Shown here piece by piece: positions 16,666-37,958 of a stretch of DNA of 64,000 bases. Positions within the stretch are counted from its first letter, which is position 1. Each line of letters starts with the position of its first letter. The stretch is taken from IMG/VR virus record IMGVR_UViG_3300014832_000004, positions 16,871 through 80,870 of that record. One strand, written 5' to 3'. The position numbers were made by a program, and so were the translations under genes. The notes beneath the pieces are model-generated. The model did not search any database, was not told where the DNA came from, and saw nothing but the letters and a program-made list of their open reading frames with translations. The DNA comes from a virus (lineage: Duplodnaviria; Caudoviricetes).

Positions 16666-17022
16666 TCAAATCACCCCCACAATTCCAGGGTTGAACGGGC
16701 TGTCAAAACTCTCGGCACGTCTGTTGCACGGAACGCATCGCCGGTTGTTGGCGCTCGACGATCCGAACTCATGGCCGCACATCAGGCACCGTCGAACAGC
16801 CGGGCCGCGAGCAATATCGGACGCTGACCTTGACTCTAAGTTGCCCGTCGACGATGCCGCCGACAATGCGCGAAGCTCGCGGACGCGCGACGCCACCTGC
16901 GTGCCTCGCAGGCCAATCATCTCGCCGACTTGATTGTTTGTCATGCCGGCCTCTCGCAACTCAAGAACCCTGGCGTCCATTCCTGGAGTCCATCGCATCG
17001 CGCCCGGTCTGTGAGTGCTCAT
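16666..17022 (-). CDS. GcrA/Myb-like HTH protein with C-terminal Zn finger
   Basis: RWT..MDARVLEL..G...Q.G..IG; CLMC..CVPC. Confidence 0.6.
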   Translation of the reverse strand: MSTHRPGAMRWTPGMDARVLELREAGMTNNQVGEMIGLRGTQVASRVRELRALSAASSTGNLESRSASDIARGPAVRRCLMCGHEFGSSSANNRRCVPCNRRAESFDSPFNPGIVGVI

Positions 17023-33190: not shown

Positions 33191-33418
33191 ATGGAAAATT
33201 TCATCCAACCCAAAATAACCGGCTATCGTCAGTTGAACGAAGCAGAGGCGGCTCTGATGAACGAAATAAAAGCGAAGGGTATTGAGCTTGGCGATCTTGT
33301 CGAGAAGCTGCGGGGAACAGATGGTATTGATCAGAGGTGGACGAGCATCGGATCGACCGACCTGCAAACCGGCTTGATGGCTCTCTCGCGCGCAGTTGCC
33401 AGGCCGACGACGTTCTAA
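33191..33418 (+). CDS. acb2: Acb2-family anti-CBASS cyclic oligonucleotide sponge
   Basis: KITGYRQL..MNEIK..RW.SIG.TDLQTGLMAL.RAVARPTTF closely follows Acb2 as recalled; SD AGGAG. Confidence 0.85.
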   Translation: MENFIQPKITGYRQLNEAEAALMNEIKAKGIELGDLVEKLRGTDGIDQRWTSIGSTDLQTGLMALSRAVARPTTF

Positions 33419-33785: not shown

Positions 33786-33966
33786 GCGGTGGGAATTCGG
33801 CGACCCCAAGAAGGTCGCTATGCGAAGGGAAGAAAAATCATGCAAGGGATGCCAGTCAATCGAAACGGTCAATCTGTTCGGGGAGACTCAAACGATATGC
33901 GACGATGGCCAGCCGAAAGAGCGCCGATGCCGGAAATACAAATTGGCAGTGGTCAGCATCCTATGA
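33772..33966 (+). CDS. Small Cys-rich protein
   Basis: CKGC..C..C. Confidence 0.5.
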   Translation: MQNLERWEFGDPKKVAMRREEKSCKGCQSIETVNLFGETQTICDDGQPKERRCRKYKLAVVSIL

Positions 33967-34313
33967 CCGAGCAGCAGGCAGATGCCATCGACGGAATGTT
34001 GATCGAGTGGGCGAACTGGTCGCGAGGTTATCGGATGCGCATCGGATACCCGCAGAAGTCGCCAGGATTTGAGCCTGGCGGCGGCGCGGTCACCGCGGAG
34101 TCTTCGGAGCATCAGTACTACGACGTGCTGGCAGATCGTTGCAAGATTGTCGATCGCTGCATTGACGACCTGCCTACGCCGGAGCAGCGGGCTGCGATTC
34201 ACCGGCGCTATCTGTCGGCTGTGTATAGGATGCGAGACTACGAGCTGGCTCTGGCCGAGGCGATGGAAGCTCTGCTGGTGGCGTTTCGCCGGAAGGGGGT
34301 ACTGTGGGGGTGA
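33963..34313 (+). CDS. Late antiterminator Q-like protein
   Basis: L.EWANW..GYP..S..VDRCIDDL..EQRAAIHRRY; end of early-right operon. Confidence 0.65.
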   Translation: MTEQQADAIDGMLIEWANWSRGYRMRIGYPQKSPGFEPGGGAVTAESSEHQYYDVLADRCKIVDRCIDDLPTPEQRAAIHRRYLSAVYRMRDYELALAEAMEALLVAFRRKGVLWG

Positions 34314-34552: not shown

Positions 34553-34577
34553 TTGTGGTTTTGGCGATGAAACGAAA

Positions 34578-34597
34578 CAGCCGCCCGTAGGCGGCTG
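34578..34597. terminator. Terminator between converging operons
   Basis: CAGCCGCC-CGTA-GGCGGCTG; same core hairpin as 14267-14284. Confidence 0.7.
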
Positions 34598-34617
34598 ATT
34601 GTGCTCGGAGACAGCGG

Positions 34618-34950
34618 TTATTCGCGGAACGCCACCCACGCGAACTCCCAATCGTCTGGGCTTTCGCTCACCGGAGAGCCCTTTGTCGCCGGGTTTGCGA
34701 CGCGCTTTTTAAGGCGCATGACGATCGCCTGGTCGCCGTCGGCGAAGGTCGTCTCGACGCGGGACATGGGGATTCTGACGCCGGTCCATGTCTCGATAAG
34801 GTCGACGTTCTGCGGATACCCGATGCACGAGCACCAGCCGGACGCGTCGCCCTGGACGACGGTAGCGAGATCGCCGACCGTCGCCGGCGAGTAGGTGTAG
34901 GTGCCGAAATTTCCCGCAGGCATTACGGCACTGTTCATGAGGAAGATCAT
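34618..34950 (-). CDS. DUF1874/STIV B116-like protein (AcrIII-1 ring-nuclease family), GY variant
   Basis: IFLMNS..SCIGYPQNVDLI..TGV.IPMSR....GDQAIV.RL..R aligns by eye with SIRV1 gp29. Confidence 0.75.
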   Translation of the reverse strand: MIFLMNSAVMPAGNFGTYTYSPATVGDLATVVQGDASGWCSCIGYPQNVDLIETWTGVRIPMSRVETTFADGDQAIVMRLKKRVANPATKGSPVSESPDDWEFAWVAFRE

Positions 34951-34954
34951 CGTC

Positions 34955-35335
34955 TCAATCTCCGTAGATAATGCTGCTTGCGACCGTGCGCGCGGCGTCG
35001 GTCAGGAATTGACCGACCGGCCGGCCGGTCATCTTCGCGCAGTCCATCGCGCACCTGGTGGCGCGATCGAGCGCCGCCGCCGGAGCCGTCCCGGCCATGA
35101 TGGCGTCGAACAGATCGCCGAAGGCTTGCGCCTTGGCGGCATTTTCGGCTGCCGGCGAATAGTCGCCGTCCGCGTCCGGATTGGCGTCCGGATCGACCGT
35201 GTTTTCTCCGGCTGCGGCCGAGCCCCAGCCGGACTGGCCGACGAAGCCGGCGTCGTCGTCGCGGACGCGCGACTGCTGGTCGCGCAGTTGTTGCTGTCGC
35301 TCCAGTTCGAGCTGGTACATGCTGCTCAGTCCCAT
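34955..35335 (-). CDS. Acidic hypothetical protein (126 aa)
   Basis: SD AAGGGGG; D/E-rich middle. Confidence 0.65.
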   Translation of the reverse strand: MGLSSMYQLELERQQQLRDQQSRVRDDDAGFVGQSGWGSAAAGENTVDPDANPDADGDYSPAAENAAKAQAFGDLFDAIMAGTAPAAALDRATRCAMDCAKMTGRPVGQFLTDAARTVASSIIYGD

Positions 35336-35336
35336 T

Positions 35337-35567
35337 TCAATCCCCCTTCTCTGTATCCGATGACGCATCATGCGCCACCGGCGTTGCTTTGTCGGCTGCG
35401 GCAAGCTTGCCGTCCAGCCAGTCACGCAGGGCCTTTGACGCACCGCGGCGGATGTACTCGGCGCGCTGCGTCGCGCTGACCCTGGCGCTGATGGTGGCCA
35501 CCTGGCCAGATGGCGCGATGGTCGGCTGGCGCCCCTGGCCGGGGCGATTGCCTGTGCGCTTGGCCAT
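35337..35567 (-). CDS. Small ribbon-helix-helix-like DNA-binding protein
   Basis: RPGQGRQP..ATISARVSATQRAEY..GASKALRDWLD. Confidence 0.55.
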   Translation of the reverse strand: MAKRTGNRPGQGRQPTIAPSGQVATISARVSATQRAEYIRRGASKALRDWLDGKLAAADKATPVAHDASSDTEKGD

Positions 35568-35568
35568 G

Positions 35569-35892
35569 CTATCGACCGTCATCGAAACGGTCGTTGTCCG
35601 CAATCTCGCGGAAAAGACTCGCGAGCACTTCGCGGCTTTGTGCCGCGACCCACCTTGGATCCTTCGCTTGCTCACGGGCAGCCTCTTCGGCTATCTCGTA
35701 CCCTTCGCTGAGGACAGCGAAGGTTATAGCCGCTTCCGCTAGACCGCACGCGGCAGCGTATAGCGCGACCTGCTTCGGGTCGCGCGGAGAAGCATTAGCA
35801 TTAAACAGAGCCGGTTTAGCCGGGACATAGCCGGCCAAAATTTCTCTGAGCATTTCAGAGCAAGCCTGATATTTGTCCATGTCCATTTCCAT
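35569..35892 (-). CDS. Hypothetical protein (107 aa)
   Basis: SD AAGGAGG; first gene after promoter. Confidence 0.7.
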   Translation of the reverse strand: MEMDMDKYQACSEMLREILAGYVPAKPALFNANASPRDPKQVALYAAACGLAEAAITFAVLSEGYEIAEEAAREQAKDPRWVAAQSREVLASLFREIADNDRFDDGR

Positions 35893-35921
35893 TCCCTCCT
35901 TGGTTGTTGTGTGTCGGCATC

Positions 35922-35952
35922 TGTATTGTACGACAATACAAAAGGAAGTCAA
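35922..35952 (-). promoter_or_regulatory. Leftward sigma70 promoter overlapped by a perfect inverted repeat
   Basis: TTGACT-16 bp-TACAAT; TGTATTGT-ACG-ACAATACA at 35922-35940. Confidence 0.75.
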
Positions 35953-35978
35953 CAAGAATTTTCGCTATGCATTTCGTC

Positions 35979-36006
35979 TTGACAATAGCCTGGCGGATCT
36001 CGTAAT
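35979..36006 (+). promoter_or_regulatory. Possible late (pR'-like) promoter
   Basis: TTGACA-16 bp-CGTAAT upstream of terminase genes. Confidence 0.45.
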
Positions 36007-36079
36007 CTCGCGGGTGGTGGGCGAGTTGCGCCCAAAGACAGCCGGCCAGTGGTCGGCTTTTTTGCGTTTACGGAAATCA

Positions 36080-36361
36080 ATGGAAGTACAGCGGGAAAAA
36101 ACGGGACGATTCGGTGTTGGGAATCCAGGAAAGCCGAAAGGAGCCACGCGCAAGGTGACTCGCACCGCGCTTGAGGCTATTGCTCTCGCGGCAGACAAGC
36201 TTGGCGGCGCAGAGCGCCTTGTCGAGTGGGCGCAAGAAGACCCCGAGAACGAGCGTGCATTTTGGGTGCATATCTATCCCAAGCTTTTGCCGCTGCAGCT
36301 CACTGGCGCGGACGCGGGTCCGATCGAGTTTTCATGGTTGGAACACGCAGACAGGTCTTGA
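36080..36361 (+). CDS. Terminase small subunit
   Basis: GRF..GNPGKPKG; precedes large terminase. Confidence 0.7.
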   Translation: MEVQREKTGRFGVGNPGKPKGATRKVTRTALEAIALAADKLGGAERLVEWAQEDPENERAFWVHIYPKLLPLQLTGADAGPIEFSWLEHADRS

Positions 36362-37620
36362 TCCCCTACGCGCCGCGGCCGGCATTTGTGCCGTACCACA
36401 ATGCGCGATCAAGGTACGCGCTGACCGTGGCGCATCGTAGGGCAGGCAAGACCGTTGCGAGGATCAACCAGCTGATTCGGTCGGCCGCGTGCTGCAAGCT
36501 CAAGAGCCCGCGGTACGGGTATCTAGCGCCCTACTACATACAGGCCAAGGACATCGCATGGTCGTATCTCAAGCACTACTCGGCGCCAATCCTGGCATGC
36601 GGCGGGAAGATCAACGAATCTGAGCTGTCGGTCGTTTTCGGCCACAACGGCGCGCAGATCAGGCTCTACGGCGCCGAAAACGCAGAGCGTCTGCGCGGCC
36701 TGTACTTCGACGGGCTTGCCGCAGACGAGGCGCAGGATATCGCGCCATCGGTGCTGACGCAGATCATCCTTCCGGCGCTTGCAGACCGGCAGGGGTGGCT
36801 AGACCTGAGCGGCACGCCAAAGGGATGGGGAAACTTGCTCGGGGCGACTTACAAGCGAGCGGTGGACGACCAGGAGTGGTTTGTGCAGGTGCTTAAGGCC
36901 AGCGACACCGGGATCATCCCGCAGGACGAGTTGGATCGGATGCGCAAGGCGATGCCAGAGAACGAATATCAGCAAGAGTTCGAGTGCTCGTTTGATGCGG
37001 CTATCACCGGCGCTTACTACGCGCAGGAATTGCGCAAAGCTGACGATGATGGCCGCGTGGCTTCGGTCCCGGTTGATCGGATGCTCAAAGTCCACACCGC
37101 GTGGGACTTGGGCATGGCCGACTCAACGGCGATCTGGTTCTGGCAGCAGACCGGTCGAGAGATCCGATTTGTCGACTACTACGAGTCCAACGGTTTCGGA
37201 CTAGACCACTACGCCAGGGTGCTGCAGGAGCGTGGCTACCTGTATGGCACGCATTGGGCGCCACACGACATCCAGGTGCGAGAGATGGGCACCGGCAAGA
37301 GCCGGCTTGAGGTCGCCGAGGGCCTTGGTATTGCTTTCGAGATCGTGCCTCAGATCGGCATCAAGGATGGCATCGACGCGGCCCGGCTGATGGTGGATCG
37401 ATGCTGGTTTGACCGTACTCGGTGCGCCACAGGCCTGGATGCGATCCGACAGTACCGGGAAAAGATCGACGACAAGCGAGCGATCAGCATGGGGCCGCTG
37501 CACGACTGGACCAGCCACGCAGCGGATTCGTTCCGCTACGCGTGCGTCGCGATTCAGGAAAAAACGATCACTGCGCGGCCGGCTTTCGCAGGCGGATATG
37601 CAGGCGGATGGATGGGTTAA
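36334..37620 (+). CDS. Terminase large subunit
   Basis: HRRAGKT Walker A, DEAQD Walker B, TAWDLG, SHAADSFRY. Confidence 0.92.
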   Translation: MVGTRRQVLIPYAPRPAFVPYHNARSRYALTVAHRRAGKTVARINQLIRSAACCKLKSPRYGYLAPYYIQAKDIAWSYLKHYSAPILACGGKINESELSVVFGHNGAQIRLYGAENAERLRGLYFDGLAADEAQDIAPSVLTQIILPALADRQGWLDLSGTPKGWGNLLGATYKRAVDDQEWFVQVLKASDTGIIPQDELDRMRKAMPENEYQQEFECSFDAAITGAYYAQELRKADDDGRVASVPVDRMLKVHTAWDLGMADSTAIWFWQQTGREIRFVDYYESNGFGLDHYARVLQERGYLYGTHWAPHDIQVREMGTGKSRLEVAEGLGIAFEIVPQIGIKDGIDAARLMVDRCWFDRTRCATGLDAIRQYREKIDDKRAISMGPLHDWTSHAADSFRYACVAIQEKTITARPAFAGGYAGGWMG

Positions 37621-37958
37621 TGAGCACAACGCATATGCAGGATGGCCCGGCATCGCTGACGGTCGGGCCGTCGTCTGCTGTCCCGCCGCATATGCGCGGG
37701 CGAGTAATGGAGGTGTCAGCGGTGCACGTAGAACCAGAGTCGAGGCGCCATGGACACGCCACGGCGTTGCTGCGCATGGTGTGCGCAGATGCCGATCTGT
37801 CCGGGTTTGTGCTGCTTCTGTCGCCAGAACCTGAGGATGATGGGATGCCCATTGATGCGCTTGCAGCGTGGTATTCGCGGCTCGGGTTTGTGACGATCCA
37901 GGATGAGCCGATGCTGATGGCGCGCGCTCCCCGCCAGGCCTCGCGGGGGATGCATTGA
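37620..37958 (+). CDS. GNAT-like acetyltransferase
   Basis: VHVEPESRRHGHATALL..AWYSRLGF. Confidence 0.7.
   Translation: MSTTHMQDGPASLTVGPSSAVPPHMRGRVMEVSAVHVEPESRRHGHATALLRMVCADADLSGFVLLLSPEPEDDGMPIDALAAWYSRLGFVTIQDEPMLMARAPRQASRGMH

Follow-up and report, generated by a model that had tools for sequence, protein, structure and literature searches.

What does a compact operon of four small genes, running antisense to its neighbours, contribute to a phage genome? The question is raised by IMG/VR virus record IMGVR_UViG_3300014832_000004, an 80.9-kilobase (kb) record of a tailed phage (Duplodnaviria; Caudoviricetes) that is complete according to CheckV, of which we analysed positions 16,871 to 80,870, a stretch of 64,000 nucleotides (nt) referred to here as the window. 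The operon is a tightly packed cassette on the minus strand at window positions 34568-35952, between the terminase/portal block and a gene of 174 amino acids (aa) without a family name. We favour the interpretation that it is a self-contained, self-repressed counter-defence operon of the anti-CRISPR/anti-CRISPR-associated (acr-aca) type, an interpretation that we regard as probable while leaving appreciable room for doubt. The evidence that carries it comes from related loci, in which the regulator gene and the non-coding modules are retained and the remaining genes are exchanged.

The four open reading frames (ORFs) are co-directional and separated by gaps of only 1-4 nt. In order of transcription, they are P0001 (35569..35892, minus strand; 107 aa), an acidic orphan; P0002 (35337..35567, minus strand; 76 aa), a basic protein and probable Aca-type autorepressor; P0003 (34955..35335, minus strand; 126 aa), also acidic; and P0004 (34618..34950, minus strand; 110 aa), a DUF1874 protein of the AcrIII-1-Crn2 family in which Tyr45 replaces the catalytic histidine. 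We treat P0001 and P0003 as cargo and as candidate anti-defence factors. A long plus-strand ORF at 34901-35479 was rejected as an antisense artefact of the GC-rich coding strand.

These genes are enclosed by equally compact control elements. A sigma-70-type promoter, TTGACT-16 nt-TACAAT (35925..35952, minus strand), agrees with the consensus at 10 of 12 positions and is directly preceded by a conserved A/T-rich stretch, AAAATTCTT (~35953-35965); the promoter scan returned 2 promoter-like sites in 2 kb where 0.5 was expected. Over the promoter spacer and the -10 hexamer lies a perfect inverted repeat, TGTATTGT-CGT-ACAATACA (8-N3-8; 35922..35940), which is unique in the window even at 2 mismatches (0 expected) and is the sole match in the whole phage record even at 3 mismatches. 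The conserved, CA-rich 5' leader that follows (35893..35921, minus strand; ~30 nt, of the ATCGACACACAACAAC type) ends in an AAGGAGG ribosome-binding site and has no predicted structure (-1.1 kcal/mol, z = 0.5). At the other end of the cassette stands an intrinsic terminator (34568..34597, minus strand) common to the cassette family, with the hairpin CAGCCGCC-TACG-GGCGGCTG (8 bp, 7 of them GC) and a T-rich tail located at 34597..34578 and a folding energy of -23.3 kcal/mol (z = -2.7). A first-pass annotation of this DNA had described an antisense four-gene operon with its own near-consensus promoter, a perfect 8-bp inverted repeat across that promoter, a DUF1874 gene and a terminator; its positions fit exactly, and each of these elements was recovered here. 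Of the two proteins that it could not name, it had called one acidic, and this needs widening, as both are (isoelectric point, pI, 4.54 for P0001 and 4.24 for P0003).

Is this arrangement more than a chance assembly of plausible signals? On three IMG/VR contigs, genes 91% and 85% identical to P0004 and P0002, respectively, are accompanied by wholly different genes in place of P0001 and P0003. Alignment of the window with one related locus, L001, resolves into three blocks of identity, namely the promoter and leader (35959..35887, 82%), the regulator (35560..35333, 87%) and DUF1874 with the terminator (34957..34575, 87%), and P0001 and P0003 fill exactly the two gaps in homology. A blind scan of IMG/VR with the palindrome returned the same three contigs and three further loci (L041, L008 and L022), each of which encodes a P0002 homologue (49-70% identity) adjoining the palindrome. 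Most of the 46 viral contigs with the palindrome were set aside as chance matches, and L010 as an unrelated repeat. Scans with regulator profiles yielded 36 metagenome and 2 genome loci; most of those with enough upstream DNA have the promoter/operator module within ~1.1 kb upstream of the regulator, and of those whose regulator also reaches 58% identity or more, the majority retain the palindrome at 0-2 mismatches. Many loci have a second promoter/operator copy right after the regulator gene and before a further small cassette. Across related loci, the TTGAC-N17-TACAAT module recurs in 30 distinct promoter fragments, and the terminator core GCCGCCTACGGGCGGC with its T-run stands behind unrelated last genes in ~20. 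Because these non-coding modules are conserved in many diverged loci, the layout is not a chance pattern, and the acr-aca-like architecture proposed at first pass gains strong support from ~40 loci that keep regulator, operator-promoter and terminator and exchange their cargo.

The palindrome itself is best understood as an operator. Of 14 distinct group-A promoters, 12 have its left arm intact and two show a single changed base there, and the six spacer nucleotides beside the arm vary among the same promoters. Promoter spacers are normally free of sequence constraint, so an arm conserved inside one provides the best non-experimental evidence that the repeat is an operator. No clear co-variation of regulator strand residues with operator half-sites was seen among the related loci.

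The exchanged genes are numerous and mostly without relatives. Ninety cassette ORFs fall into 43 clusters, one of which is the regulator (at least 17 loci); ~35 of the 42 others look like real genes, nearly all of them orphans. When 20 cargo representatives were compared with Pfam, 19 had no match, the exception being an HNH endonuclease. The latter is encoded directly after the regulator in L041 (2494-2922, minus strand) and resembles HNH_3 homing endonucleases (E 2e-8), indicating that the slots also take up selfish genes. Different cassettes occupy one and the same genomic place in L041/L058, L008/L060, L056 and L061, flanked on one side by a homologue of the 174-aa gene and on the other by the gene for the small terminase. 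We propose that related phages probably exchange cargo by recombination at the cassette borders, where the identical promoter/operator and terminator modules would act as joints.

One exchange bears directly on function. In two sister cassettes the last gene is a Csx20-like gene of 127 aa (L075:4242-4622 and L088:2127-2498; PADLOC E 9e-8), placed behind a second operator-promoter, with the shared terminator after it. Both Csx20 and AcrIII-1 have been proven to be ring nucleases for cyclic tetra-adenylate (cA4), with different folds (PMC12409355; 10.1101/778746). That two unrelated ring-nuclease-type genes swap in one slot suggests that the slot serves the removal of cyclic oligoadenylates, and this is the strongest argument that we can offer. 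The identity of DUF1874 with the AcrIII-1 anti-CRISPR family, on which the first-pass annotation had not drawn, and the Csx20-like occupant of this slot in sister cassettes together strengthen the anti-defence interpretation.

How far, then, does P0004 resemble the family to which it belongs? It matches PF08960 (DUF1874, STIV_B116-like) at E 1.3e-11, its 45 bits exceeding the cut-off of 26, and can be aligned with AFV3-109 (2J6B) over its full length; a profile of its branch matches all solved family members (for example, 2J6B at 1.6e-16 and 6SCF at 4e-6). The PADLOC Csx16 profile also matches residues 1-87 (E 9.7e-9), more weakly than PF08960, and since Csx16 is structurally close to AFV3-109 (PMC12409355), the two profiles overlap. 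DUF1874 constitutes the AcrIII-1/Crn2 family of cA4 ring nucleases (10.1101/778746; PMC12409355). In SIRV1 gp29, His47 is the "absolutely conserved" general acid, and the H47A substitution slows cleavage more than 2500-fold (10.1101/778746). Like SIRV1 gp29 (6SCF), AFV3-109, STIV B116 (2J85) and Csx1-Crn2 (8Y6Z/8Y7F), P0004 keeps the S-x-I-G-[H/Y] motif and, judged by sequence alignment only, the equivalents of the cA4-contacting N8, the S/T after the histidine (T50), R66 and R85; unlike them, it has Tyr45 in place of the general-acid His47. In P0004 the positions taken to contact cA4 are N6, S41, T/N48, R64 and R83.

The substitution is typical of a large, environmental branch. Tyrosine occupies the catalytic position in 143 of the 148 nearest 50%-identity cluster representatives, and N6, S41, G44, T/N48, R64, R83 and K90 are each at least 90% conserved across these 148. 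The same gene, at 91% identity, is found in L001-L003 and L053. Among 50,697 GenBank phage records the branch lacks any close relative, P0004 retrieving just archaeal-virus AcrIII-1 genes, at 28% identity, and a locus scan with a closer set of Tyr-branch proteins gave two unrelated viral loci only. In a metagenomic protein of 226 aa, P0124, a Tyr-type DUF1874 domain (E 4e-17) is naturally fused with an RHH_1 (ribbon-helix-helix, RHH) domain (E 8e-10), which may comprise two RHH repeats, and this fusion links a small-repressor function with the Tyr-DUF1874 function in one chain. A viral protein of 215 aa (L101:2680-3327) joins an N-terminal domain of no assigned family to a Tyr-type DUF1874 and adjoins a TnpB-like gene of 472 aa. 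P0004 most likely captures cA4, the messenger of type III CRISPR, at its dimer interface. Whether it would go on to cleave the messenger, with Tyr45 as proton donor, we put at about an even chance; pure sequestration is appreciably less probable, and another ligand or role less probable again.

The regulator presents a different picture, one of strong conservation without a recognised fold. P0002 (pI 10.3) has 39 homologues among 5.8 billion proteins, all metagenomic and none with a Pfam domain. In 24 aligned sequences the string PGQGRQPT, part of the N-terminal arm GN[RA]PGQGRQPT, does not vary. Residues 23-30 alternate between hydrophobic and polar and end in the invariant R29-V30-S31, next to a nearly invariant A28, and G42-A43-S44, with a conserved G42, fits the RHH turn motif G-x-S/T/N. 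A weak AlphaFold2 monomer model (predicted local distance difference test, pLDDT, 60) places an extended stretch before helices 32-40 and 45-61. No Pfam family matched P0002 at E up to 1; the RHH_1 and Arc hidden Markov models (HMMs), run over the phage with a threshold of E 10, found nothing; comparison with seven RHH_1 domains by hhalign reached a probability of 5.8%, on helix B only; Foldseek and VIA-align searches with the low-confidence model returned no RHH match (best Z 2.5), a result that does not count against an RHH fold; and the P0002 profile found just weak KorB and designed-repeat matches among PDB sequences. A classic helix-turn-helix (HTH) at residues 34-53 was considered and rejected, as the motif pattern, inspected by eye, does not fit. 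Given the absence of an RHH match by HMM, hhalign or fold, we call the protein RHH-like, unproven, on the strand-helix-helix pattern of its sequence; the RHH-like label given at first pass was not recovered by any of these methods. The accompanying suggestion of a candidate autorepressor fares better, gaining strong comparative support from the ~40 loci that retain the operator-promoter, and we consider P0002 probably an autorepressor of the Aca type, with co-conservation pointing to DNA binding. The N-terminal arm (residues 7-20; window 35507-35549) is better conserved than the predicted DNA-binding core and may contact the AT-rich operator in the minor groove. A tblastn search with P0002 and a blastn search with the whole cassette found no match in the GenBank phage records.

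The two orphan cargo proteins have few relatives, all metagenomic and without Pfam domains. P0001 probably starts at its second ATG (35886, giving 105 aa), as in the database homologues, of which 6 were found in the same protein collection (64-100% identical, with 52 invariant columns); P0003 has 12 (58-97% identical). The homologues of P0001, P0002 and P0003 mix invariant and variable alignment columns, which indicates that all three are real genes. P0001 has no match in Pfam, NCBIfam or PADLOC, and only weak ones to PHROG families of unknown function (E 0.013 and 0.051). IMG/VR scans with P0001 and P0003, singly or as alignments, found no relatives, and the ESM Atlas gave nothing usable for either, its model of P0001 being poor (pLDDT 0.48). 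For P0003, AlphaFold2 predicts a helix at the N terminus, then an acidic, disordered linker of 35 residues and, at the C terminus, a bundle of three helices in which a C-x-x-x-C motif is conserved (residues 70-120, pLDDT ~91); Foldseek found no match to this model in BFVD or PDB at E <= 0.001. Both proteins are candidates by association, in that they are small and acidic, have an orphan distribution and sit in the exchangeable slots, and the chance that either is a further inhibitor of host immunity, acting by protein binding or nucleic-acid mimicry, falls somewhat short of even.

Taken together, the cassette would act as follows. Upon entry of the phage DNA, host sigma-70 RNA polymerase would fire the strong promoter, and the unstructured CA-rich leader and tight gene coupling would give a burst of four small proteins. 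P0002, probably as a dimer, would bind TGTATTGT-N3-ACAATACA and shut the promoter, as the co-conservation of regulator and repeat suggests. Late rightward transcription of the opposite strand would then add interference.

In which host would such an operon be useful? The contig that holds one of the sister cassettes has been binned to an Accumulibacter metagenome-assembled genome, and Accumulibacter is the likely host genus. Among 40 species genomes of this genus, 12 encode Cmr2 and 14 encode Csm1 above cut-off. Several of these genomes contain long ORFs with a His-type, Crn2-like DUF1874 domain within a few kb of Cmr2; in the regions G026:C44:112427-118545 and G007:C92:56362-62489, such ORFs, of 482 aa, lie ~5 kb from Cmr2/Cas10 and may be Csx1-Crn2-like fusions. 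These domains keep the motif S-A-I-G-H, so that the cellular copies are of the His type and the phage copy is of the Tyr type; the proximity of Crn2-type domains to Cas10 suggests cA4 signalling in the probable host genus.

The surroundings of the cassette in the phage genome point the same way. A 75-aa protein with an Acb2/Tad1 hairpin domain (33191-33418, plus strand; PF24729 at E 1.3e-16, above cut-off) is encoded ~1.2 kb from the cassette and, by its domain, is likely a cyclic-nucleotide sponge; like it, a gene for a C5 DNA methyltransferase lies just upstream in the window. The Acb2/Tad1-fold gene and the methyltransferase mark a phage region rich in counter-defence genes. A DUF7696 protein (E 1e-14) follows the Acb2/Tad1-type gene.

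The first-pass annotation had set the operon between Q and terminase. The terminase neighbour is confirmed by PHROG matches to the large subunit (E 8e-31) and to a portal protein (E 5e-162); the 174-aa gene (33789-34313, plus strand) has no Pfam or PHROG match and owes the name Q to position only. L041 and L008 have homologues of this gene in the corresponding position, just ahead of cassette and terminase, and it may represent a late regulator of a kind not yet described. On the plus strand, a promoter-like TTGACA-18-TAATCT at 35979-36008 stands back to back with the promoter of the cassette and is followed by an intrinsic terminator (36040-36058 plus T6) and by the start codon, an ATG at 36080, of the first gene ahead of the large terminase. 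This stretch (35979-36082) resembles the PR'-tR' layout of lambda, the target of a Q-type antiterminator, and L041 and L008 conserve its counterpart. The ORF at 37422-37958 (plus strand), which separates the genes for the large terminase and the portal, has weak GNAT acetyltransferase matches (E 1.4e-4, below cut-off).

Several observations weigh against a counter-defence operon. DNA binding, repression, expression timing and every protein activity are inferred, and P0002 matches no known DNA-binding family in HMM, profile or fold searches; where the regulator is more distant (the group at ~49% identity), the operator has a degenerate left arm (TGTTNNGT). Beyond the two ring-nuclease-type genes, the ~35 cargo families match no known anti-defence family, and one cargo gene is a selfish HNH endonuclease. 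Tyr45 of P0004 aligns with the catalytic histidine of AFV3-109, STIV B116 and Csx1-Crn2, so the only family-assigned cargo in the window may not act like its family, and a single binned sister contig underlies the host assignment. Much of this would be expected of a generic, autoregulated accessory ("moron") cassette serving host takeover, superinfection exclusion or prophage fitness, with a Tyr-type DUF1874 unrelated to immune signalling. A promoter and terminator of its own are the classic moron layout, nearly all cargo families are orphans, and one cargo gene is a homing endonuclease; the catalytic histidine is absent, and our literature search found no report of an experiment on a DUF1874 protein with tyrosine at this site. 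The anti-CRISPR action of AcrIII-1 in its native host has also been questioned in a preprint (bioRxiv 10.1101/2023.01.10.523387). A moron cassette does not readily account for DUF1874 and Csx20-like proteins, with their unrelated ring-nuclease folds, sharing a slot in sister cassettes, nor for the conserved cA4-contact residues of P0004, the match of the layout to Aca14-csx20 operons and the prevalence of type III CRISPR in the likely host genus, and we consider it unlikely, if still a serious competitor. A type II toxin-antitoxin module, with P0002 as antitoxin and repressor and a neighbouring gene as toxin, would likewise feature a small basic DNA-binding protein, a palindromic operator and translational coupling. 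It would also require a stable partner, and none is co-conserved with the regulator: the genes before and after it differ among loci, the regulator is first, second or third in its cassette, and P0001, P0003 and P0004 match no toxin family. For want of a conserved partner we reject this explanation, to which we attach only a marginal probability.

The remaining alternatives leave the operon logic intact and concern what its cargo does. P0004 could be a non-hydrolysing cA4 sponge, comparable to the H47A variant of SIRV1 gp29, working alongside the Acb2-type sponge of the same phage. That variant still binds cA4 and was crystallised with the ligand buried in its dimer (10.1101/778746). The replacement of the general-acid histidine throughout most of the branch, with the binding residues kept, agrees with such a role, as do a strong promoter and unstructured leader suited to large amounts of protein and the Acb2/Tad1-fold gene nearby. 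The near-invariance of the tyrosine suggests that it has a chemical function and not that one has been lost; tyrosine participates in metal-independent RNA cleavage by several Cas6-type RNases, and this too counts against a sponge, which we regard as possible but doubtful. A more ambitious version of the counter-defence operon would make the whole cassette family a dedicated anti-cyclic-oligoadenylate toolkit around a regulator family not described before, in which the Tyr branch sequesters cA4 uncut or cuts it, or a different messenger, by a chemistry based on tyrosine and P0001 and P0003 are new inhibitors of type III CRISPR or of other signalling defences; we offer this as a speculation that we consider unlikely. 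Overall, a self-repressed acr-aca-type operon remains our preferred explanation of the cassette.

As such, it has close parallels among known systems. Aca14 (WP_005725436.1; described in July 2026) is an RHH regulator with an AT-rich inverted repeat that overlaps the -10; it shares its operon with csx20, and its control extends to operons nearby (bioRxiv 10.64898/2026.07.27.740549). Like the Aca14-csx20 operon of Pasteurella multocida and other acr-rhh operons, the cassette family combines a small non-HTH regulator with an AT-rich repeat over the -10; as with Aca14-csx20, it carries exchangeable, ring-nuclease-type cargo, and the same operator precedes neighbouring operons, here in L008, L059, L060 and L075. 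The comparison is one of layout; Aca14 has a recognised RHH domain and P0002 matches no RHH HMM. They differ further in that the window's cargo is a Tyr-type DUF1874, with Csx20-like genes only in sister cassettes, that the hosts here are uncultured wastewater bacteria, and that the regulator is the second of four genes in the window.

Classical acr-aca operons (acrIF-aca1 of Pseudomonas phage JBD30; Aca1-Aca13) likewise feature a strong early promoter with an internal operator and a conserved regulator whose small, acidic cargo neighbours vary, and they too serve guilt-by-association searches; they differ in that the regulator here is non-HTH, the cargo includes no validated Acr and the terminator is also a conserved module. 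In this last respect the cassettes recall the promoter-early stem-loop (PeSL) cassettes of T4-type phages, whose modules mediate modular shuffling (Arbiol et al. 2010, PMC2839356): in both, strong sigma-70 promoters and terminator hairpins recur on either side of non-essential orphan genes and recombination between these modules shuffles the cargo, but PeSL units have no dedicated repressor or operator, whereas each unit family here has a regulator gene of its own. Finally, P0124 is comparable to known regulator-Acr fusions (AcrIIA1 with an HTH; AcrIF25 with an RHH) in joining RHH_1 to a Tyr-type DUF1874; in the window, by contrast, regulator and DUF1874 are separate genes with one gene between them.

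The general design is already known from Aca1-14, and what is gained here is not a principle but new parts, that is, a regulator family, an operator and cargo. If our interpretation is true, P0002 and its operator represent a new family of Aca-type regulators, one without a match among known DNA-binding profiles. Because the palindrome alone retrieved further cassettes, it can be used as bait for ~35 candidate anti-defence families in wastewater phages. The operon also gives the large, uncharacterised Tyr branch of AcrIII-1 a counter-defence context beside a Csx20-like equivalent, so that the question of nuclease versus sponge becomes directly testable for this branch. It does so, moreover, in phages that probably infect phosphate-removing Accumulibacter, where type III CRISPR is common.

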